Shown here in pieces: positions 11,338 to 28,824 of a stretch of DNA of 64,000 nt. The notes beneath the pieces are model-generated. The model did no database searches. It worked only from the letters and a program-made list of their open reading frames with translations, and was not told the DNA's origin. The first letter of the stretch is position 1. Every line of letters begins with the position of its first letter. Origin of the DNA: a virus (taxonomy: Duplodnaviria > Caudoviricetes); the IMG/VR virus record IMGVR_UViG_3300048691_000224, one strand, 5' to 3'. The position numbers and the translations under genes were made by a program.

Positions 11338-12291
11338 TCAAAACGAGAAGTCAGACTCATACGCCTTACTTTGGCGAGTGGGGACTTGTCTGGGAATCGA
11401 ATCGAACATATTATGCAGCATATTGTCAACCAACATACCAACGTGGCGTTGCCTATCAATTTTATCAAAGAATTCATCCTTGAACCACTGAGGAATCATC
11501 TCCTCATCTGTCGGGACAGCAATCGCCTTAAACATACGACCGGCGTGTTCCATTTCATATTTTAGTTTGAAAATCTTAATTTTCATACCACTCGATATTA
11601 ACAGCGACTCAGTATCTCCCGCAGCTTGTCTAAAATCATTATATAAAATTGCTGCTGATACATGGCCGGGTAGGCGTGTAGTTGGGTAGTCTCTAAACGA
11701 GGCTGTGTACTGTTCAATTCCCTTGATACCTTTTGGAAGGCCGAGATCCATTAGATCAATCTCATCAATCATTTCATCACGATATTCCATGATAAAATCA
11801 TCTAGCTCTTCATCAGGGGTTCCTGTAAGCATTTTGTGACACGTAGATCGCAGGAATGCTTTGACGGGGCGGGGGGTCGTAGTCTTGCGCATGTCGACCC
11901 CCATAGCCTTCAGTTCATCCTTGGCCTTGCCTTCTTTGTCGATCACATGGATGACATACCGCTTCTTCTGAATGAAAAATCCTTTATCAGCAACCAATTC
12001 TCTACCAGTTTTAATGTGCTGGTCGAACCCGGGTTGTACCAAGAATGCTGATCGATTGTACGCGGGGAATGAGGCATTGATCTCATGACCTATCTTGTCA
12101 GCAATCTTAACTACAAGGTTTGGATTGGCATTGGGTGGGATTATCTCACTGAGTGAACAATACAAACTGTTGTGCACCAATATACCGTTGGCGAAAAAAT
12201 TATGTACCCCATCAACCTCAATGTCGTACACATCAAGCTCTTGTAGACCCAAATCAATAATTTCAAAATTATCTGTCTCAACTATATTCAT
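11338..12291 (-). CDS. split-intein C fragment (41 aa) fused to the C-terminal part of family-B DNA polymerase
   Basis: VYDIEVDGVHNFFANGILVHN then +1 Ser; followed by PolB motifs KKRY, KAMGVDMRKTTTP, PGHVSAAILYN. Confidence 0.92.
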   Translation of the reverse strand: MNIVETDNFEIIDLGLQELDVYDIEVDGVHNFFANGILVHNSLYCSLSEIIPPNANPNLVVKIADKIGHEINASFPAYNRSAFLVQPGFDQHIKTGRELVADKGFFIQKKRYVIHVIDKEGKAKDELKAMGVDMRKTTTPRPVKAFLRSTCHKMLTGTPDEELDDFIMEYRDEMIDEIDLMDLGLPKGIKGIEQYTASFRDYPTTRLPGHVSAAILYNDFRQAAGDTESLLISSGMKIKIFKLKYEMEHAGRMFKAIAVPTDEEMIPQWFKDEFFDKIDRQRHVGMLVDNMLHNMFDSIPRQVPTRQSKAYESDFSF

Positions 12292-12298
12292 CTATTTT

Positions 12299-13372
12299 TT
12301 ACTCTTCAGGGGGATCACGAGGTGGTAGTTTATATTCTGCACGTATTATGTCAAGCACGTGGCTGGGATCACGATCAAAATCTCGCTCCCACACTACTAT
12401 AGTGCGATAGTTCCGGCTTTGTATGTGGGCAAGTTTTTTAGCGTCTGCGTCCCAACACTGAGATGCGGTTTTTCTGCCTCTACCGCGGAGTGCTTTTGGG
12501 AAGTCGGTTGGACCATATAGCGTTGGATTCCCATGATAGTGATCCCCGTTGAATTCTATACAAATCTTGTGGTTGGTATCAACGTAATCATATTTGTAAA
12601 ATCGTCTACCCAACGGGTCAAATGACCCAAATTCGGTATTTTTTGTGGCGTAATATACGTGCTCATCCGGAAGCTGTAAGTCATTGACTATTAAGTCGAA
12701 CAATACTTGCGACTTTACGGAATAAAAGTTAAATTGATTTGAGAACTTCTCAACCAATTTCTGAGTAGCAAGCTCAATATCCCCATACCGTTGGATATAG
12801 TTGTCAATTGTGTGGGCTTTAGATTTACATAGCGCATCCCATACTACCAACCCCTCATCCACCCCATGCTTGTCCTGGAACCACTGTAGGGATACTCCTG
12901 CAGTTCGTTGCTTCTCGACATAACTGGTCCATCTAAGCAACCCCTCTTGTTCACCATGGCGGGCGATCATTCTTTCTTTAGTCTGCTTTCTGGTTGAGTT
13001 GTATTCATCAAACTGATCGAGGGTCCACCCATGTGTACGCGATTTATACACAAATGTATTTTTTTCAGCCATGAATGCCCGACGTGCGGCCCATTTTGCA
13101 TCTGCGTAAGCGCCGTATGATAATACGTAGCGGTCATATGTGTGGGATAACCCTCCTTTATGCTCAATAACAATCCTCCAATACCGATCAAACATATTAG
13201 GTTCGATCTTATGAATTTCATATTTCAAGAAGTTATACGTAAACTTGTGGTGATTTTTGTTCCCACTATCTTCCAATTGCTTACTCAGTTGCTGGTATTT
13301 AATTAAGTCGATATCTGATATGTCTAGGTTGAATGTAGTTGCTTTATTGCGTAGTGTTCGTAAGGTTAGCAT
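12299..13372 (-). mobile_element. free-standing Vsr/DUF559-like homing endonuclease inside the fractured polymerase gene
   Basis: C-terminal YDYVD...IEFNGDHYH...DAKK...IVVWE; sits exactly between the intein halves; GTAAATA at 13398-13404 upstream. Confidence 0.8.
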
Positions 13373-13374
13373 GT

Positions 13375-15870
13375 TTATGGAGATACAGATTCGGGGGTAT
13401 TTACACTAATCAACTTATCCCCCCTTACTATATTCATCGGTGTTGTGCTTATTATTTCAGTGCCGCGGCGGACTATAATGGAGTGATCAGCTGTTATAGT
13501 AACCGATGCTCCATTTACCCTAACCTCAAACATGCGTTTTTTGACAGTATGTTTCATGACATAATTAATGGGTTTGGTTACTGGGTTGGACCCATCAAAA
13601 CCCACACTCGTTGAGCCGACTACTCGCTTGACATAATTGTTGGTAATCGGGTCGTGTTTTATGAAATCACCTGGCTGCTCCTCGTAAAACTGGGCAATAG
13701 TTTTTTGAATTCCGTTTACATAAATCGCGGTACCCCCAACAACCGAGTCGGTGTCGCCATAGATCAGACATGGGCTTGCAATCTCGTTGTTGATCGCCCG
13801 TGGGTCTTCATCACTAGTAATTGGGTTGATGTTGTAATCTCCATCTATAATTTCACAACCCTTGCGAATTTGGTGCCCGAGTATGCACCTACCTGTTGCA
13901 GTCACTGATTGCCCCATCCGCTTATCATAGAACCGGAAATTTTGATTGAGTAATGCACCGTATGCTGAATTGAGCTTAATTTTCATCGCATATTGCGTCA
14001 TATCTGCGAATTCATACTCTGTCTGCAGTAATGCCGCTTGATGAGCATCAGTCGTTGCTGCTATGGCACCCAATACTTGTTTGGATTGAGCTTGGAATTG
14101 CTTCCTTGTCGAATACCACCTACCGAGTAATGCTGGAATGATGCCTTCAACATCTTGGCGGAAAACTGTACCGTACCCTGAAATGGCATACTTCAGTTCA
14201 ATGAGATGCTCCTTCCACATTCTAGCTGACTTAGTTTCTACTTCCTGAGTTTTTTCCCATCTAAATGTTAATTGGGCGGTTGACCCAGCATTAATCTCAG
14301 TCCACGCAGACTCAAACTCACTGAATTGTCCGATTAACGTCTCGGGTGAAATGTTGACGGTGCGGATTGTATTTGGGTATAGAGAATTTATATCATAACA
14401 AACTATCCAGTTATGCATACCAGTTTGCGGAACTAACACATATGCACCGGCAGCTTGCCCTTGTTCGTCTAGCTGTTTTGTATCAGGGACCCGAACATTT
14501 AACTCGTACCAACAGTAATTATTGATAGCCATCTCTGCAGACCGGACAGTACCCACAATGTTTTTGAAATGGCACGTAGATTCATGAATTAGTGTATTAG
14601 CTAAATTTATAAATTTATACTTCTTATCTAACTCTCGAAGAATTTCAGTGTCACGGCAATTGTACCTCACAAACTTACTAAAGTTGTTGTTGTACAGATG
14701 GTGCAGAGTGCCTTCGTAATCCAACTTCTTGAATCGCTCGCCGAGATGGTCCTGGGAAACAGTTTCCAAGTTCCACGAGTCTCGATCCTCGACTGTAAAC
14801 TTCTTGAATAACTCCATGTAGTCGAGTGTGACGCGGCCATCAAACTGAACAAATAATTGCTCTTGGAAGAATACTTCTTTGGTCTGGAACCACGGCGCTT
14901 TACCTTTTGGAAATGACAGCATCTGCAACCACTCTTTGCCTAACACAATCTCCACTCGTTTAGCGAAGTATGGATCATCAAATCGTGAGGAGTTCCAACC
15001 AGACAACAAATCTGATTGTTGAATTTCCTCAACGGACCGAGTGAGTAGCTCAGTCTCATTTTTACAGAACACAATTGTAACCTTGGAATCAATATCTTCA
15101 AATAAACTGTAGTCAAACAGTTCTTCGACATTGCATCCTGTCCAGGACTTGGGTGGGACAGAAAAGATGACGTACTCGTCTTTCCAGGTGTGGTAGAACG
15201 CAATTGAGTTTAGTGGTGCGTATGGATCGAGTGGTGAGCTGAAACCGATTGGCCCATCGTATGTGTACAATGAATTTTTAACCGCCACCCACTTCTTTAC
15301 CGGCTCATCCCACACCTCAACATCAGGATCGCTCCTATAATCGCGAAGGTCCCAAACTGTAGCTTCGAAGGATTCTGAACCAATATTGCGAAGTTTGATT
15401 TTATGGTCCGCGTCGTACTTTTTGGGCCGGTAATCTACCTCGATGTCATAGTATGTTGTGTTGATGTGAGGCAATTCACATTTATAATACAGCGCACTCA
15501 GCGCCTTTAGTTCAGGTGGAATGTCGCTCTCAAATAAATCAACATCGATTGGTTTGCTATCTAGAAACTTCGACATCTCCTTCTTATTTGAGAATTCTAG
15601 TTCATACAAATCATCACCAAACATTGATTGATATTTGGTAGTTTCATCAATTGCAGTAGTACCAAGCCCCAGAAACTTTTTTAACACTCCATCAGGCGTT
15701 CCTTCTTCTACCGAATCACTAAACTCAGCGTGGGTTGAGTACCAGTCGCTACACTTGATGTAGCAATTGTACAGCGCCCTGACTGTCTTAATCGTCGGGG
15801 CGTGGTTAGGTGTCAGGCGTTGTTCCCAGATGGTTACGTGATCGAAGTGTCTACTAGCTGCAATGTACAT
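13375..15870 (-). CDS. family-B DNA polymerase N-terminal part (gp43-like) fused to split-intein N fragment (123 aa)
   Basis: Exonuclease motifs YDIEV and GWNSSRFD; YDINSLYP, KIKLNSAYG, YGDTD; then SVVGGTAIYV...VTITADHSIIV intein blocks A and B from 13746. Confidence 0.95.
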   Translation of the reverse strand: MYIAASRHFDHVTIWEQRLTPNHAPTIKTVRALYNCYIKCSDWYSTHAEFSDSVEEGTPDGVLKKFLGLGTTAIDETTKYQSMFGDDLYELEFSNKKEMSKFLDSKPIDVDLFESDIPPELKALSALYYKCELPHINTTYYDIEVDYRPKKYDADHKIKLRNIGSESFEATVWDLRDYRSDPDVEVWDEPVKKWVAVKNSLYTYDGPIGFSSPLDPYAPLNSIAFYHTWKDEYVIFSVPPKSWTGCNVEELFDYSLFEDIDSKVTIVFCKNETELLTRSVEEIQQSDLLSGWNSSRFDDPYFAKRVEIVLGKEWLQMLSFPKGKAPWFQTKEVFFQEQLFVQFDGRVTLDYMELFKKFTVEDRDSWNLETVSQDHLGERFKKLDYEGTLHHLYNNNFSKFVRYNCRDTEILRELDKKYKFINLANTLIHESTCHFKNIVGTVRSAEMAINNYCWYELNVRVPDTKQLDEQGQAAGAYVLVPQTGMHNWIVCYDINSLYPNTIRTVNISPETLIGQFSEFESAWTEINAGSTAQLTFRWEKTQEVETKSARMWKEHLIELKYAISGYGTVFRQDVEGIIPALLGRWYSTRKQFQAQSKQVLGAIAATTDAHQAALLQTEYEFADMTQYAMKIKLNSAYGALLNQNFRFYDKRMGQSVTATGRCILGHQIRKGCEIIDGDYNINPITSDEDPRAINNEIASPCLIYGDTDSVVGGTAIYVNGIQKTIAQFYEEQPGDFIKHDPITNNYVKRVVGSTSVGFDGSNPVTKPINYVMKHTVKKRMFEVRVNGASVTITADHSIIVRRGTEIISTTPMNIVRGDKLISVNTPESVSP

Positions 15871-22233: not shown

Positions 22234-22659
22234 TCACGTTGCTAGTGCTATTTTTGCAAGTAATTTTAACTCATCACTGGTAACTCCTAGCTTAGCGCAC
22301 AGTGCGGCTTCTTTCTCAGCTTGCTCTGTAGATAGTTTGAGTTGTTCTTTATCATATACTTTTTGTAGCTTTGCCTGCTCTTTTTGTAGTTTGGTATAGG
22401 TTGTCTTGTCAACTACACCAACCCTTGGAAATTTACCAGGAAAGTAAGTGATCATGTCGGGGGAAGCAATTTGTTGTTGCAGGGTAATATATTCAGCTTC
22501 TGAGATCTCTGTGGGCTTGTACCCCAAAAATACACTACCATCTGTAGTTCGCATTACACCAATCCACTCACCATTGTCATCTTGATTGTAACACGCAAGT
22601 GTTAGACCTGTTCCAAATGAGTCATTGAGTTCACCTAGTGTGTAATATTTTGTTATCAT
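22234..22659 (-). CDS. hypothetical protein
   Basis: 141 aa with a C-terminal coiled coil; follows the tail-fibre gene. Confidence 0.65.
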   Translation of the reverse strand: MITKYYTLGELNDSFGTGLTLACYNQDDNGEWIGVMRTTDGSVFLGYKPTEISEAEYITLQQQIASPDMITYFPGKFPRVGVVDKTTYTKLQKEQAKLQKVYDKEQLKLSTEQAEKEAALCAKLGVTSDELKLLAKIALAT

Positions 22660-24065
22660 AGATATGCTCCTCCGCGTGTTACTTTAACTTTCATTGCCAT
22701 ATTGCCGTGAATTACAGCGTATCCGTTCCAACTATGGGCTTGATATAGAATGCCCCACCATTGAGCGTATACTGTCACCGTTCCACCAGGTGGGATAACT
22801 TTGAAAAATCTCGCTCCTGATACAGTAGATTCTGTGTAGACGTCGAAGCCGCCAGCACTTCGCGTATTGAGGCCCGAAGAGTACACATCCTGTCTCATCG
22901 TGCCTTGTAGATTTGGGTCACCATTACCACTGTATCCAGCAGGCATTGTTATATTTAAATTCTCACCGATTGTATAAACCAAACCAAATGCGGCGTTGGG
23001 TAATCCATAATACAAATTGCCGTGTCCAGTGAGGTCTGCTTCAAATAGTACCGATTGATTTGTCGGATTTGTATATGAATAACTTAGATACGCGGGTGGA
23101 TTGCTGCCAGAGGGAATTGTAACTCCTCCAGCTTCAGTTGCAAAGTCCCTACCTCGGAAGATTGCTACACCATCACCATTCCCTGTGTCGTATTGATACC
23201 ATTGGGCACCGACAGCCAGACAAATCCCAGCACCAATCAGTGTGCTGGGGTTGCTAACCCAAACTGCTGGATAGGGTTGCTCAATCGGCCAGACTAATTG
23301 CCATGTACCAGCTGTGTCGCAGATGTATAACTTATTGACCGCGGTATTGTGCCAGAGCAAACCAATTTCATTTGCTGGTTGATTAGGGCTAACGATTACT
23401 TCCTCAGGAATTGGCCAGACTAATTGCCAGATGTTATTCACATCACAGATTCTGAGTTGATTAGCAGCGGTATTGTGCCAGAGCAAACCAATTTCATTTG
23501 CTGGTTGATTAGGGCTAACGATTACTTCCTCAGGAATTGGCCAGACTAATTGCCATGCGTTATTGGTGTCACAAATATACAACGTATTGGTTGCGGTATT
23601 GTGCCAGAGTAGACCAGTTTCGTACGCTGGTTGAACTGGGCTAACAATCACCTCTTCGGGGGTGGGCCAGACCAATTGCCATGTACCAGCTGTGTCGCAG
23701 ATGTATAACTTATTGACCGCGGTATTGTGCCAGAGCAAACCAATTTCATTTGCTGGTTGATTAGGGCTAACGATTACTTCCTCAGGAATTGGCCAGACTA
23801 ATTGCCAGACTCCAACAGAGTCGTACAATTTCAACTCCTGGGCTCCAGTATCATACCACATCTGCCCCGGGGTTGGGTTGACAGGGGGATAATCACTCGC
23901 GAAGTGCTCCATTGTATGGAGCATATTCTCCCAAATCAATTCTCCGTACACTGGAGATCGATACCCAACCATCTTGAGTGATGTTGAGTGGTCGAAACTC
24001 AGTGGGGGAATTATAATCTGTGGTTTTGTATTGTCGCTATGGTCGACTACGTAGGTTCCTGGCAT
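22656..24065 (-). CDS. tail-fibre-like protein with four 42-aa tandem repeats
   Basis: Same N-terminal module as 20941..22176; repeats WQLVWPIPEEVIVSPNQPANEIGLLWHNTA... Confidence 0.75.
   Translation of the reverse strand: MPGTYVVDHSDNTKPQIIIPPLSFDHSTSLKMVGYRSPVYGELIWENMLHTMEHFASDYPPVNPTPGQMWYDTGAQELKLYDSVGVWQLVWPIPEEVIVSPNQPANEIGLLWHNTAVNKLYICDTAGTWQLVWPTPEEVIVSPVQPAYETGLLWHNTATNTLYICDTNNAWQLVWPIPEEVIVSPNQPANEIGLLWHNTAANQLRICDVNNIWQLVWPIPEEVIVSPNQPANEIGLLWHNTAVNKLYICDTAGTWQLVWPIEQPYPAVWVSNPSTLIGAGICLAVGAQWYQYDTGNGDGVAIFRGRDFATEAGGVTIPSGSNPPAYLSYSYTNPTNQSVLFEADLTGHGNLYYGLPNAAFGLVYTIGENLNITMPAGYSGNGDPNLQGTMRQDVYSSGLNTRSAGGFDVYTESTVSGARFFKVIPPGGTVTVYAQWWGILYQAHSWNGYAVIHGNMAMKVKVTRGGAYL
23287..23807. 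repeat. tandem repeat, 126-bp unit x4 plus a 17-bp partial unit
   Basis: Unit boundary GGCCAGAC(T/C)AATTGCCA recurs every 126 nt; first and last full units near-identical. Confidence 0.95.
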
Positions 24066-24069
24066 TTTA

Positions 24070-24927
24070 TTAATTCACAACCAAATTAGTGAGATATTTA
24101 TGCAGATCAGGCAGTCCGCCAATGGAGGTGCCATCAGGGCACACTATTTGCGGGAAGCTTCGAGCGCTTGGAAACTTCTCACTAAAGTCATCACGCGTGA
24201 AGTCAACATCCAACATCTTGGTTATAAATTGTTTATCCTTGTTTGTCAGTAGCGCTTTAGCTTGATCGCACTGTGGACAGCCGGGTTTGGAATATACAGT
24301 AAATTCTGGAATTCCAACATATCGATCTGCTGAACCAAACATTGGAGCATCATCACCGCTGTATTGGCCCCAGACGTCATCCCAATCACCCTCTGTAGCA
24401 CCTTTGGAATACTCAAATACTTTTTGTTCGAAAAAGTTTCCGTGAGTTACGCTATCAATCATCTGCTCTACCCATGGTAGCGGATTCTTTTTAATTTTGA
24501 ATATCCCCTTTAATCCAAGGGCGATCAATCGGCGATCTGCAATGTACCTAATATACAACTTCACATCAGCTGCCGTAAGGTCTTTCATTTCACCCATCTC
24601 AAACGCGAGATCGATAAACTTATCCTCCAAATCAACCATGCGCTCTGCAATTGTATAGAGTTGACTCTTCAGGCTATCTTTCCAGATGTGTCGATTTTCC
24701 TCAATAAACACACGGAACAACTTAATCATAGCGTCTGTATGACAATTACCAGAAATGGATAGTGTGTTAGCATGTCTAATTTGAAACGCTGTACCAGGGA
24801 CGCTGAGACAAAACACTTCTGTTGACTGAAGTTCTTTGGTCACTTGTACTGCTGATTTGGGGATCGGTGGTAAGCTACCAGCAATCGCCTGAAGCATATT
24901 GATAATATCCGTATTTGTTTTATTCAT
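24070..24927 (-). CDS. nrdB: split-intein C fragment fused to the C-terminal part of ribonucleotide reductase beta, with a C-terminal glutaredoxin domain
   Basis: VFCLSVPGTAFQIRH...ISGN then +1 Cys (CHTDAMIKLF); YIRYIADRRL, NPLPW, NFFE; then YSKPGCPQC and SFPQI. Confidence 0.9.
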   Translation of the reverse strand: MNKTNTDIINMLQAIAGSLPPIPKSAVQVTKELQSTEVFCLSVPGTAFQIRHANTLSISGNCHTDAMIKLFRVFIEENRHIWKDSLKSQLYTIAERMVDLEDKFIDLAFEMGEMKDLTAADVKLYIRYIADRRLIALGLKGIFKIKKNPLPWVEQMIDSVTHGNFFEQKVFEYSKGATEGDWDDVWGQYSGDDAPMFGSADRYVGIPEFTVYSKPGCPQCDQAKALLTNKDKQFITKMLDVDFTRDDFSEKFPSARSFPQIVCPDGTSIGGLPDLHKYLTNLVVN

Positions 24928-25879
24928 TTGTTGTATTCTGAGCACTAGTTAATGTTTTTGCGCGAGCCGCTGCTGCAGCGGCTAGCAGTTTGTCAATGTG
25001 TTTTATGGTTCTACCTAATTTCCACCCAGTTGGTATCTCAGCTAGCCTACCAATAGTTTTAGATTCAGTGCCGTTGGTTATCCACTGCTTATCGCGCTTC
25101 TTTTGGGTCATCCCAGCCCAGAATCCAATTGGAGGATCTATATTAGGCTGAAGCTTCAGATTGGTTGTGCCATCTGTATAGCAAATTACACCCCTAATAT
25201 TTGGGTGATTTGATACTTGCATCCTTTGGGCAGCAGTACGGATTTGGGGTGGGGGTGGATGTTTACCAAATCTCCACCCAACTGGTAGTTGGGCTGTTTT
25301 TAGCATTTGTGTCGACGTTGTACCATCAGTAATCCACCTAAACTTCCCTACTCGAGTTGCTGAGGCCTTGCGCCTAATCTCTATTGCTTCTTCAGTATAC
25401 ACTCGTCCTGTGTTGTTGGGAATACTATGTGGGTGGTCTTGCAACCGCTTGATGTTGCGCCTAGTCACACATTCTAGTTCATCCGCCGAATAGTAACTAC
25501 CACCATTTAATAATCGCCGGGCAGCAGATGTTTTTGCACGCGTAGCGGTAGCTTTTGACCTTGCGGTTTGACGCACATAATCAGGTACACCCGCTAGTGT
25601 GTCTCCACCTTGGCCACCTATTGCTATGTTGTAGGTATCATCCCTTGATACAAAATTAACGTCAACTAGTTGACGTTCTACAGCTCGAGCTTCGTCCCAA
25701 GTGTCACACTCATGCAATGTGATTCTCACAAAGTTATCTCTACCATATTTTTCGACGGCCCTAGCTAACAATATACCCGAACCCAAATACCCATCAAATT
25801 GATCGGCAAACTGCTTGTGGATCCCCACATATATGCGATCATTGATTACGTTAGTTGTCTGGTACACGATATAATTCAT
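24920..25879 (-). mobile_element. GIY-YIG (Seg-like) homing endonuclease inside the fractured nrdB gene
   Basis: YIVYQTTNVINDRIYVGIH...YLGSG; NUMOD-like WITDG / GW..GR repeats. Confidence 0.88.
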
Positions 25880-25893
25880 TCAGATTCAAGATG

Positions 25894-25933
25894 TTACGTG
25901 GTACCATATTTATGTCTTCGTTGTACCACGTAA
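25894..25933 (-). promoter_or_regulatory. late promoter CATAAATA (25907-25914) in the loop of an 11-bp hairpin upstream of the GIY-YIG gene
   Basis: TTACGTGGTAC (25894-25904) / GTACCACGTAA (25923-25933) perfect inverted repeat. Confidence 0.7.
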
Positions 25934-25941
25934 TATTCTCT

Positions 25942-26991
25942 TCAGCTCATGTACTCTAGTAGAAATTCCTTCGCCCACGATGAGTCCATTATTGGGAGCA
26001 GTGGCAATACCCACTCCAAAGACAATACACCTTCTTTGGTGAGTCTACACAATTCCTTATGCTTGTCTGTCAATACTTTCAAGGAGCCACTCTTAGTGCC
26101 CGAGCACACGTAACTAAACTCCTCAGTTACAGATTCAATATCCTTCGCCTGAACGTCCTGTATCCGACCATCACCCATCTCTAAAATCATTCTATGATTT
26201 GGTGATACTGATTGTGAGAAACCTTCACCCTTAAAATGGTACACTGTCGGTACTGTTTTCTTGGTAAGATTGGTTGGAGTCACAAAATTAGTCTGACTGG
26301 TTTCGGTATCATACTCTAACAGTTCAGTAGATAGTGTGACACATTCGATAGGTAACCACCCATCTAGTGTCATAACTTCTGTGCCGGCAACCAAACACTT
26401 CTCATCAAGGATCGACCAAGAGATGTTTGAGCCCATTCCAACCATCGTTCCGTGACGGGGGAAGTTCAATAACATGATGAATGATGAAAATAATTGCATA
26501 CCTTCAGTGAATGCTGAGAATACTGCTAGCTGTTGAGCAATGGACTCGGTGTCAGTTCCGATAAAATTCTCAACATATTCGTATTTTTCACGCATCGCAT
26601 CATATTCTAAGAACTGATTGTAGATTGTGTCAGGCATTCCTAGCGTTTCCACTAGGTTAGAGTATGCTGCAATATGAGTAGCTTCACGAGCCGCAAAACT
26701 TAACAACATCATCCGAACTTCTGGTTGGGGAAATACCGGTAGATAATTCATCACATATGCATTTGCTACACTGATGTCACCTTGAGTGAAAAATCTGAAG
26801 ATGTGGGTCAAGAAGTTTTGTTCAGACTGTGTTAATTTGGTGTTCCAATCTTTAACATCCTCCAGGAGAGGGGCCTCCCAGTGACCCCAATGCATGCGTT
26901 CGTGATCCATCCACGTTTCGTAGCACCACTGGTAGTTGAATGGCTTGTACGATGGACGTGGGTCTGTTAATTTTAATTTCTTTTTGGACAT
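25942..26991 (-). CDS. nrdB: ribonucleotide reductase beta N-terminal part fused to split-intein N fragment (151 aa)
   Basis: FFTQGD, REATH, FTEGMQLFSSF, WSILDEK; then CLVAGTEVMTLDGW...VSPNHRM intein blocks from 26397. Confidence 0.92.
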   Translation of the reverse strand: MSKKKLKLTDPRPSYKPFNYQWCYETWMDHERMHWGHWEAPLLEDVKDWNTKLTQSEQNFLTHIFRFFTQGDISVANAYVMNYLPVFPQPEVRMMLLSFAAREATHIAAYSNLVETLGMPDTIYNQFLEYDAMREKYEYVENFIGTDTESIAQQLAVFSAFTEGMQLFSSFIMLLNFPRHGTMVGMGSNISWSILDEKCLVAGTEVMTLDGWLPIECVTLSTELLEYDTETSQTNFVTPTNLTKKTVPTVYHFKGEGFSQSVSPNHRMILEMGDGRIQDVQAKDIESVTEEFSYVCSGTKSGSLKVLTDKHKELCRLTKEGVLSLEWVLPLLPIMDSSWAKEFLLEYMS

Positions 26992-26997
26992 AGTAGT

Positions 26998-28824
26998 TTA
27001 TTGGCAGGCGATACACTCTGTAGAATCAACAGCTTCTGTGGTAGGAGACTGTTCGTCGATTTTAACTCGTTTGATTGTTTTGGAGATTTTTTCAGTAGAT
27101 TTAAGTTTCTCACTTCTAAGGTAATATAGCGTCTTCAATTCTTGTTTCCAAGCATTGAAGTGAATGTCGTGCAATACCTTAGTAGTCACGTTAGGTTTGG
27201 TGAACACATTAACACTCTGCGCTTGGTCGATGTGGGGTTGACGATCAGCAGCGAGATCAATGATATGTTGTTGGTCAATTTCCATTGCTGTCTTGAACAC
27301 GTCTTTTGTATGTGCGTCAAATAAATCAGAGTGTTGGATTGACCCATCGTGTGCATTGATGTCCGACCAAATATCATCACGGTCCAACTTTTTATCTGCA
27401 GCACACAGAGCAATAATCAATTTATCAAGGTATGGGTTGCGATGGAAGTTGAATCCAGAGAGTGTGTCCTGACGATAGCAGTTGGCTCTGAACGGTTCGG
27501 CGCTTGGTGAAGTGTTTCCTAGAATCAAACTAGACGACGCATTTGGCGCAAGTGCGCATCTGTGAGAGAATCTAAGTGGTTTGGTCATGTCCCCACCACC
27601 TTCGATATAGTCGAGGTTTGCTCCACGCTCTACCCCAAGTCTCTCTGAGGATTCGAGTGATTGATCGTCTAGCTGTTTGAATATTTGGATATTCATTGCT
27701 CGCGATTCGGGTGATCCAAACGCAACATTATTTTTTTGGAAATATGCGTGCAGACCAAGCAAACCCAAACCAACTGATCTCTCTCGTTGAGCTGAGAAGC
27801 GAGCTCGAGCAATCGAATCTGGCGCATTATCTATAAAATATTGCAGCACATTATCCAACATTTCCATAACATCAGATATAAACAAGTTGTCGTTCTTCCA
27901 CTCATCGTAGTACTCCGCATTTACAGATGATAGTACGCAGATTGCAGTTCGATTTTCATCGACAGGTAGTGTTATCTCAGAGCACAGATTCGACTGTCGG
28001 ATTTTCAATCCTAATTTTTTTTGCCAGTGAGGGAGCTTCTTATTTGCGGTGTCGATGAACAGAAAATATGGTTCGCCGGTTTCTTTGCGGAGTTTGAGCA
28101 GTTGAGACCAGAGAGCTTTGGCAGATACCACCTTAGTAACTTCTTTGCTGAATGGATCAATCAGTGGCCAATCATCATTAGCATTACTGTCCTTCATACA
28201 TCGTTCGATGATGTGCATGAAAGCATCTGGGATATTGACTGCGTGATTCAAATTTGTGCAACGTGTATTAGCATCGCCAGTAGGTTTTCTCATTTCTAAG
28301 AATGGGATAATCTCGGGGTGTGAGATATCCAAATACATGGCGAAACTACCTCTGCGCGTAGATCCTTGTTTGTAGGCCATACTCGCGCTGTCATACGTCT
28401 TCATATGGGCAAGTACGCCAGTAGATTTATCGTCGCTAGTACGAAGGCCAACACCTACGCCAACGCCTCCCCCAAGCATACTCAGAATACAGGTTTCTTT
28501 ATAGGTATCAACCAACCCATCAGATGAATCAGGCAAAAAACTAAGGTAGCAGCTAACAGAAAGACCTTTCTTGTTGCGGCCATGTGATAAGATTGGCGTT
28601 GAATAACTCAACCAGTGTTTACTAGCGTAATTGTATAACCGCTGAGCGTGTTCAGGATTGCTAGAAAACTGCTTGGATACTTTAGCGAACCGCTCTTGTG
28701 GACTGACCTCGTCGGAGGTCATATATGATTCTCTGAGCCTCTGTAGACCGAGTTGATCAAACAATGAATCGCGTGAGTAGTCTACGGTAATGCCTGCTAT
28801 TGCAGGTGGGAGAGTGGTTGTCAA
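26998..28824 (-). CDS. nrdA: class I ribonucleotide reductase alpha subunit (no ATP cone)
   Basis: SCYL, GGGVG, QSNLCSEI, LAPNASSS, DQAQSVN, KTLYYLRS, C-terminal CIAC. Confidence 0.95.
   Translation of the reverse strand: MTTTLPPAIAGITVDYSRDSLFDQLGLQRLRESYMTSDEVSPQERFAKVSKQFSSNPEHAQRLYNYASKHWLSYSTPILSHGRNKKGLSVSCYLSFLPDSSDGLVDTYKETCILSMLGGGVGVGVGLRTSDDKSTGVLAHMKTYDSASMAYKQGSTRRGSFAMYLDISHPEIIPFLEMRKPTGDANTRCTNLNHAVNIPDAFMHIIERCMKDSNANDDWPLIDPFSKEVTKVVSAKALWSQLLKLRKETGEPYFLFIDTANKKLPHWQKKLGLKIRQSNLCSEITLPVDENRTAICVLSSVNAEYYDEWKNDNLFISDVMEMLDNVLQYFIDNAPDSIARARFSAQRERSVGLGLLGLHAYFQKNNVAFGSPESRAMNIQIFKQLDDQSLESSERLGVERGANLDYIEGGGDMTKPLRFSHRCALAPNASSSLILGNTSPSAEPFRANCYRQDTLSGFNFHRNPYLDKLIIALCAADKKLDRDDIWSDINAHDGSIQHSDLFDAHTKDVFKTAMEIDQQHIIDLAADRQPHIDQAQSVNVFTKPNVTTKVLHDIHFNAWKQELKTLYYLRSEKLKSTEKISKTIKRVKIDEQSPTTEAVDSTECIACQ

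Follow-up and report, generated by a model that had tools for sequence, protein, structure and literature searches.

A nrdB–glutaredoxin gene fractured by a putatively trans-splicing split intein and a GIY-YIG endonuclease gene in a freshwater myovirus

The stretch of DNA analyzed here, referred to below as the window, comprises 64,000 nucleotides (nt) of the IMG/VR virus record IMGVR_UViG_3300048691_000224 (Duplodnaviria; Caudoviricetes) and belongs to an uncultivated freshwater myovirus possessing gp5-like and gp53-like baseplate genes. On its minus strand, between positions 24,070 and 26,991, the nrdB gene for the ribonucleotide reductase (RNR) beta subunit is broken within the second ExxH metal motif by the two halves of a split intein, with a free-standing GIY-YIG homing-endonuclease gene lying between them. 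We consider it highly probable (roughly 87%) that the locus represents an nrdB–glutaredoxin (NrdB-Grx) gene fractured by a mobile split-intein/GIY-YIG cassette whose halves trans-splice. It is a genuine fractured gene and a further member of a published split-intein type, not new in kind.

Four open reading frames (ORFs) of the same direction make up the locus: nrdA and ORFs of 349, 319 and 285 amino acids (aa). The 349-aa N gene (25942..26991) encodes a 198-aa extein ending in ...WSILDEK (26398..26991), followed by a 151-aa intein-N that begins CLVAGTEV (25945..26397; Cys1 codon starting at 26397, stop codon at 25944..25942). The 285-aa C gene (24070..24927, from a conserved ATG at 24927) starts with a 61-aa intein-C (24745..24927), delimited by MAFFT alignment with the 6ZGQ construct (P0029), cis relatives and P0007. 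It continues with the C-extein, which opens with Cys+1-His (CHTDAMIKLF; 24070..24744, stop codon included), and ends in a glutaredoxin domain (~24139..24300; CPQC; PF00462); one source annotates the gene merely as 'glutaredoxin'. A GTG at 24945 was also considered as the start of the C gene and dropped, as the homologues begin at the ATG. The 319-aa GIY-YIG ORF (24920..25879) occupies the space between the two genes. Its TAA stop overlaps the ATG of the C gene in AATGAATAA, while the 62-nt spacer separating it from the intein-N stop contains a hairpin with a perfect 11-bp stem and an 18-nt loop (25894..25933). Directly upstream of nrdB and in the same operon lies the unbroken nrdA gene for the large RNR subunit (26998..28824; PF02867, E 1.3e-102, and PF00317). 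The nrdA start codon is apparently TTG, both here and in the sister phage described below. A promoter and terminator scan returned the same counts as shuffled sequence.

The two exteins together cover one NrdB. Profile PF00268 runs over positions 4–193 in the N gene and 193–281 in the C gene, so there is a single break position and the profile is continuous across it. Both the first ExxH (REATH) and the Glu that opens the second lie in the N-extein, while the C gene matches residues 201–326 of the solved NrdB 9DWS (E 3e-33); in this alignment E197 and the His of the C gene correspond to E200 and H203, the second ExxH of 9DWS. The extein residues add up to 198 + 224 = 422 aa. The ORFs, the junction sequences, the 151-aa intein-N and the GIY-YIG spacer ORF with its overlapping stop were all recovered at the positions given by the original prediction, which had been made from the DNA letters without database searches. 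Its proposal that splicing restores the second ExxH in a NrdB-Grx of about 422 aa likewise appears sound, as it agrees with the 9DWS alignment and with the size of the intein-less allele P0008.

This allele was found by a search with the C gene. P0008 is an unbroken 422-aa NrdB-Grx reading ...SWSILDEKVHADSMIKLF..., with DEKVH at the insertion site. It is the same as the window exteins except for three residues beside the site, residues 1–198 being identical to the N-extein. Its contig (L004, IMG/VR record G001), which we call the sister phage, is 99.2–99.4% identical to the window in DNA sequence on both flanks and has 15 nt in place of the 1,668 nt at 26397..24730; the inserted cassette measures 1,653 bp (26397..24745). 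Because of this empty site, Lys198 is assigned to the extein, and Cys is assigned to both the first intein residue and position +1. An intein start at the Lys, corresponding to the site used by the AceL intein discussed below, was rejected: it would yield ExH instead of ExxH, and the intein-less allele retains DEK.

The two alleles differ in a characteristic manner around the insertion point. Upstream, seven silent differences fall within the last 43 nt (26401..26440), compared with about 10 over the remaining ~1,900 nt. Downstream, a 15-nt tract (24730..24744) encodes the extein residues CHTDA where the intein-less allele has VHADS; the next 300 nt are free of differences. Recoding is limited to −43..+15 nt around the site, and the CHxDA spelling recurs in another intein-bearing relative (L005). 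In our reading, the recoded flanks were left behind by homing accompanied by co-conversion, or equivalently by changes conferring immunity on the target site, which suggests that the cassette was recently mobile.

Among solved structures, intein-N matches only 6ZGQ, the 'AceL NrdHF-1-1 intein' (phmmer E 1.7e-18, about 43% identity); this homology to a crystallized intein, together with the empty-site allele, excludes a chance resemblance. AceL NrdHF originates from a phage-like Antarctic metagenome contig with a fractured RNR-beta gene and a GIY-YIG gene between the halves (Hoffmann et al. 2020, PMC7891396). Its Int-N of 98 aa and Int-C of 48 aa, with Glu-1, Ala1 and Ser+1, trans-splice (half-time about 3.8 min; Kd 82 nM); the block-F Cys124 is essential (class 3), B:12 is Met, G:5 is Thr144, and a penultimate His is absent (PMC7891396).

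In the window, block A (CLVAGTEV) and block B (SPNHRM; Ser B:7, His B:10, Met B:12) of intein-N align with 6ZGQ column by column. Intein-C contains block F (EVFCLSVP), whose Cys40 at F:4 aligns with AceL Cys124 (Ala in the crystal construct), and block G (SISGN; Ser G:5, Gly G:6, Asn G:7); the junction ...SISGN followed by CHTDAMIKLF aligns with AceL and with cis and split relatives. With a slash marking the points of splicing, the junction reads DEK/Cys1...Gly-Asn/Cys+1-His, the break falling between the middle residues of the second ExxH (E-K/C-H). The block alignment and the intein-less allele thereby fix the arrangement of Cys1, Gly-Asn and Cys+1 that the original prediction had given as the junction chemistry. 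Every residue of importance in AceL is either retained or substituted conservatively, namely Ser B:7, His B:10, Met B:12, F:4 Cys, the terminal Asn and the +1 nucleophile.

The two systems also share an RNR beta fused to a glutaredoxin-like domain, insertion in the second ExxH, the fractured layout, a homologous GIY-YIG protein (31% identity) and a Gly-Asn end without the penultimate His. They differ in the junction, which is Ala1/Ser+1 at E/SxH in AceL and Cys1/Cys+1 at EK/CH, one residue downstream, in the window; in G:5 (Thr in AceL, Ser in the window); and in the position of the glutaredoxin domain (N-terminal in AceL, C-terminal in the window). The window halves are longer than those of AceL (151 versus 98 aa for intein-N, 61 versus 48 aa for intein-C), and AceL is free of LAGLIDADG vestiges. 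Moreover, the class-3 mechanism has been demonstrated for AceL, whereas it is only a possible route for the window copy.

A profile of intein-N, run with HMMER against 1.8 billion representatives, gave 532 matches, including the crystal construct P0029, ~10 split NrdB N-halves with an intein-N of ~150 aa, and contiguous NrdB inteins of 138–335 aa. The blocks SPNHRM, (F/Y)xC(L/V)xVP and S(V/I)(T/S)GN, as well as a +1 nucleophile, are common throughout their MAFFT alignment. About 19 related loci with the same layout were found in IMG/VR, among them the AceL locus (L019-24), Ala1 loci with a long tail (L016, L018) and a complete Cys1 locus (L011) located on a 139-kb contig, where the downstream neighbor is homologous to that of the window. 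AceL and the other Ala1 members read DE/A...GN/(S/T)xH, whereas the window and the Cys1 members, one of which has Pro1, read DEx/C...GN/CH; both junctions are shifted by one residue between the two types, and the shifts are strictly coupled. Cis-inteins at the same motif (P0034, P0035, P0043, P0047, P0076, P0089 and others) display the same HINT blocks, F:4 Cys and S/T-G-N end and fall into two junction types. P0043 and P0047 combine the Cys1, Ex/CH junction with a vestigial domain as in the window, but are contiguous. Unlike the window locus, the cis-inteins are single polypeptides, and in their ~320-aa members the two-motif LAGLIDADG domain is still intact and no free-standing endonuclease gene occurs.

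Several observations concern the site itself. Inteins are frequent at the second ExxH of RNR beta, where the family P0018–P0166 shows three kinds of junction, E/C, Ex/C and E/A; the one-residue slide at both junctions goes along with changes in the first intein residue and in the location of the +1 nucleophile. Some proteins contain two or three inteins, an example being P0050, whose first ExxH is occupied as well. On the IMG/VR phage contig L025 (2345-5119), a gene for intein-C and nrdA-C directly precedes a fractured nrdB-N/GIY-YIG pair, both RNR subunits of one genome apparently being fractured.

The assignment of the spacer ORF (25879..24920) to homing endonucleases is based on PF01541 (28.0 bits versus a Pfam cut-off of 22.6) and PHROG 314 'homing endonuclease' (E 2.6e-33). 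The protein possesses an N-terminal catalytic module followed by three WITxG...PxGW..G repeats, and a sequence search against the PDB gave no homologues. Homologous GIY-YIG genes (31–45% identity) occupy the same cassette position in L011, L016, L018 and the AceL locus L019, and across seven cassette endonuclease homologues Y..Y.G, FD.Y.GSG, E, N and GG are invariant. Since the cassette endonucleases are all homologous, the cassette is either of common origin or moves as a unit. The enzyme probably cuts the intein-less allele near the insertion point.

Relative to AceL, intein-N is extended by 50 residues at its C-terminus and intein-C by ~25 at its N-terminus. Residues ~100–151 of intein-N correspond to vestigial LAGLIDADG motif-1 and motif-2 helices: the first half of this tail resembles the LT..ERFLIA.QADG motif of the ~320-aa NrdB inteins (hhalign 82%, E 1.1e-5) and the second half their ...DWV..L...S..WA.EFIEEL.HWDG motif (hhalign 96.3%, E 1.5e-9). 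The W, W and Y positions of the tail are invariant in ten split relatives at 22–52% identity. In a full-length relative, the AlphaFold (AF2) model of the insert (pLDDT 79.5) is matched by Foldseek to PI-SceI, the TliVMA intein and I-DmoI (E about 1e-5 (1.4e-5), probability 1.00). Sequence-based detection is weaker: Pfam LAGLIDADG_3 scores below threshold in the full-length relatives, and the profile of their endonuclease region gave no significant match to PDB sequences (I-CreI, E 0.67). Intein-N of the window terminates midway in the second LAGLIDADG helix, ahead of the catalytic DG, while the contiguous relatives P0035, P0043 and P0047 hold the same remnant unbroken. The tail therefore looks like two LAGLIDADG helices stripped of their beta-sheets, with the GIY-YIG gene apparently placed inside a decayed intein endonuclease. 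The most economical history leads from a full-length LAGLIDADG intein through endonuclease decay to GIY-YIG invasion, which fractured the gene, and then to trimming, complete in AceL. The gene-breaking model of 2009 took an endonuclease-free intein as the target of invasion (PMC2677866), and the present locus therefore adds a predecessor state.

We propose that the N and C polypeptides are translated separately from one operon, whereupon the intein halves would join into a HINT fold. Trans-splicing would then free the intein and link ...ILDEK to CHTDAM..., giving the 422-aa NrdB-Grx with a complete di-metal site. Mobility would be supplied by the GIY-YIG enzyme and not by the intein: cleavage of intein-less alleles near the insertion point, with repair off the occupied allele, would copy the entire cassette together with a short stretch of flanking extein. 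Binding of the halves is predicted by complex modeling. With five extein residues each, they scored an ipSAE of 0.75 versus 0.01 for the best of three controls, a mark attained by 51 of 78 solved complexes and two of 108 mismatched pairs; since a homologous complex has already been solved, memory may contribute to this score. The halves also differ in charge (−9 for the intein-N core, about 0/+1 for intein-C), a weak feature that we did not use.

By which route the intein would splice is less certain. Class-3 inteins such as MP-Be DnaB and Msm DnaBi1 share with the window F:4 Cys and Thr/Ser at G:5, but lack a position-1 nucleophile, and their B:12 residue is usually Trp (Tori et al. 2010, PMC2807308). 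The window intein possesses F:4 Cys (Cys40), yet position 1 is Cys, and in place of the WCT-triplet residues Trp B:12 and Thr G:5 it has Met, which AceL shares, and Ser. We lean slightly toward a class-1 route starting from Cys1, a choice that sequence cannot settle. This leaning follows from a regular-expression census of cis relatives, which fits F:4 Cys being essential only in class-3 members: the combination of Cys1, F:4 Cys and Cys+1 is the commonest (19 of 37), some Cys1 relatives have Gly at F:4, and every member without a position-1 nucleophile has F:4 Cys.

A class-3 route, with Cys40 of intein-C attacking the N-terminal scissile bond and Cys1 dispensable or regulatory (e.g., a disulfide partner), is possible but appreciably less probable; the small remaining probability falls to use of both routes or to a case that fits neither clearly. 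It draws on the match of F:4 Cys, Met B:12 and Ser/Thr G:5 to the 'MCT' triplet of AceL, where the Cys is essential (PMC7891396), and on the cis relative P0035, whose Pro1 at the Ex/CH junction makes position 1 unusable while F:4 Cys is kept. However, the presence of Cys1 excludes the window intein from the published class-3 definition, which demands the absence of a position-1 nucleophile, and Cys1 inteins with F:4 Gly do exist at the NrdB site (e.g., P0042, P0080 and P0104). Furthermore, introducing the P1C mutation into the class-3 MP-Be DnaB intein lowered splicing and gave double cleavage (PMC2807308).

Three states of one homologous family, which includes cis and split forms, coexist at the NrdB motif: Cys1, F:4 Cys and Cys+1 at Ex/CH; Pro1 and F:4 Cys at the same junction; and Ala1, F:4 Cys and Ser/Thr+1 at E/xxH. 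We speculate, with considerable doubt, that the family records a natural transition from class 1 to class 3, in which F:4 Cys could already serve as a working or alternative branch nucleophile. As another option, the three cysteines of a glutaredoxin-fused protein could form a redox trap gating RNR maturation.

Several points weigh against a functional trans-splicing cassette, whichever route it takes. Both the splicing and the endonuclease activity of the window copy are inferred from relatives. The Pfam and PHROG intein models detect neither half, and intein-C alone has no sequence match in the PDB. Block G has Gly instead of the usual penultimate His and Ser instead of Thr at G:5, although AceL likewise lacks the penultimate His and yet splices. 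The predicted interface of the complex is the HINT core, and the 50-aa tail is not confidently placed. The hairpin upstream of the endonuclease gene, with a z-score of −1.67 on folding of the strand, is statistically undistinctive and weak when taken alone. No Shine–Dalgarno-like sequence precedes nrdB-N, the GIY-YIG gene, the C gene or nrdA (24928-24961, 25880-25913 and 26992-27025 inspected). Finally, the RNA-library contigs considered below may stem from contaminating DNA.

Some of these points would suit a decaying, non-splicing remnant, in which NrdB is inactive or functions as two chains held together non-covalently, as in phage Aeh1, where NrdA is split by mobE. Splicing is deduced from relatives and not directly, the penultimate His is missing, the Pfam intein models score neither half, and a non-covalent RNR encoded by genes in pieces is documented (PMC3045599, cited in PMC2677866). 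We nevertheless regard a remnant as improbable. Every residue that matters in the characterized homologue is retained, the halves are conserved among loci at 33–47% identity with frames open in all of them, and the allele is widespread, the intein-bearing stretch occurring in no fewer than 21 freshwater metagenome runs and, in part, in three metatranscriptomes. It is also hard to see how an active site could tolerate 212 aa left unspliced between the Glu and His of a metal motif, and the window contains no second nrdB.

Still less probable is removal of the GIY-YIG gene in RNA, by a group I intron or translational bypass, which would give a contiguous cis-splicing precursor. GIY-YIG genes are often found in phage group I introns, and contiguous relatives with joined LAGLIDADG pieces exist (P0035, P0043 and P0047). 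However, no Rfam family was matched anywhere in the window at gathering thresholds, nor in 23900..27200 when the cut-off was relaxed to E<=1. Only the 62 nt upstream of the endonuclease gene are non-coding, with none downstream, where the gene overlaps the conserved intein-C frame, leaving no room for a ribozyme core. Every split relative has the intein-N stop and the intein-C ATG. In RNA library X24, a contig runs unbroken from the intein-N stop through the spacer to the endonuclease start; in libraries X22 and X23, contigs run unbroken from the endonuclease 3′ end through intein-C into the extein, X22 also covering the N junction. No joint skipping the endonuclease gene was seen among the RNA-library contigs, whose coverage is sparse. 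The scenario that the original prediction had named as refuting it, joining of the halves by RNA splicing, thus finds no support.

The two alleles occur together in nature. In DNA run X13, a 4.7-kb contig of depth 18 jumps from 24729 to 26398 and carries, at the gap, the 15 nt found in the intein-less allele, while the endonuclease gene, the N junction and intein-N are represented by contigs of depth 3.5–7, so both alleles co-exist in one sample; one contig of RNA library X23 also represents the intein-less allele. Such co-occurrence might favor an assembly chimera of intein-bearing and intein-less strains, the least probable reading of all, given that contigs from many independent runs contain 0.9–1.0 of the sampled words of the stretch, short contigs cross both junctions, and the identical layout appears in unrelated IMG/VR contigs.

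The fractured nrdB-grx follows the organization of the fractured genes surveyed by Dassa et al. in 2009: two co-directional ORFs carrying intein halves, a GIY-YIG or Vsr-like gene between them, a hairpin upstream of the endonuclease gene, an endonuclease stop overlapping the downstream start, and a phage-like DNA-metabolism context (PMC2677866). The hosts listed there are NrdA, NrdJ, gp41, IMPDH, DnaE, ligase and terminase; a fractured nrdB is not in that survey (PMC2677866). At the nrdA/mobE locus of Aeromonas phage Aeh1, a free-standing homing-endonuclease gene likewise divides a phage RNR gene into two ORFs, but this case concerns the large subunit, an HNH enzyme and non-covalent assembly without an intein (Friedrich 2007; Crona 2011, PMC3045599).

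The window harbors another gene of this kind. PolB (11338..15870, minus strand), 33–40% identical to jumbo-phage PolBs and continuous on PHROG 262 at profile position 582/583, is split at YGDTD/S by a cysteine-less split intein with Ser1, block B TADH, a His-Asn end (...VHN/SLY) and Ser+1. The 357-aa ORF between its halves matches PHROG 22677 and carries an ...EFNGDHYHG... motif of the Vsr-like/EDxHD type. The PolB intein halves are encoded at 13375-13746 and 12169-12291, and BLASTP detects no similarity between them and the NrdB intein halves. The original prediction had described the nrdB locus as a second, independent fractured gene of this phage, with a different endonuclease family and different junction chemistry, and this description is borne out by the PolB locus with its Ser1/His-Asn/Ser+1 junctions and unrelated endonuclease. 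As the sequences are unrelated and both the chemistry and the endonucleases differ, it is plausible that the two split inteins are orthogonal.

In the sister phage, nrdB is intact and nrdA is fractured by yet another split intein (L004 2882-5994, corresponding to ~28550 in the window). Its NrdA-N ends in ...GLAVS before intein-N (CFESNTLVE...), its intein-C ends in VVHN/CYLSF, and the cassette includes a gene for a 326-aa HNH homing endonuclease (PHROG 655, E 4e-24) that runs in the opposite direction. The window nrdA is contiguous at this point (...LSVSCYLSF...). This phage lineage evidently acquires or loses fractured genes within very short times. Among deposited phages, megablast found no close DNA relatives, blastn gave only short nrdB extein matches, and tblastn with the N gene found none covering the intein part.

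Just downstream of nrdB lies a tail-fiber-like structural gene (ORF 22656-24065, minus strand) containing 3.9 tandem units of 126 nt (42 aa) at 23314-23809. Its product is 469 aa long in the window, 401 aa in the sister phage and 804 aa in L011, and the differences between the window and the sister phage are mostly clustered in this repeat region.

These findings bear on several questions. For annotation, both intein halves are overlooked by the standard Pfam and PHROG models. The protein-ligation toolbox gains another naturally split intein which, being a Cys1 counterpart of the one split class-3 intein known so far, is useful for studying the interconversion of intein mechanisms. Class 3 has been held unlikely to evolve directly from class 1 (Beyer et al. 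2020, PMC7664689); a class-1 to class-3 transition, if true, would contradict that view and would provide a natural, fast split test system. The near-isogenic empty allele points to the likely GIY-YIG target, so that homing of the whole cassette becomes directly testable, unlike in the case of AceL, and the presence of both alleles in the same lake samples makes its spread or loss traceable in time series. The LAGLIDADG vestiges flanking the GIY-YIG gene are sequence evidence of a free-standing endonuclease replacing a decayed one, and they refine the 2009 model of how such genes become fractured.

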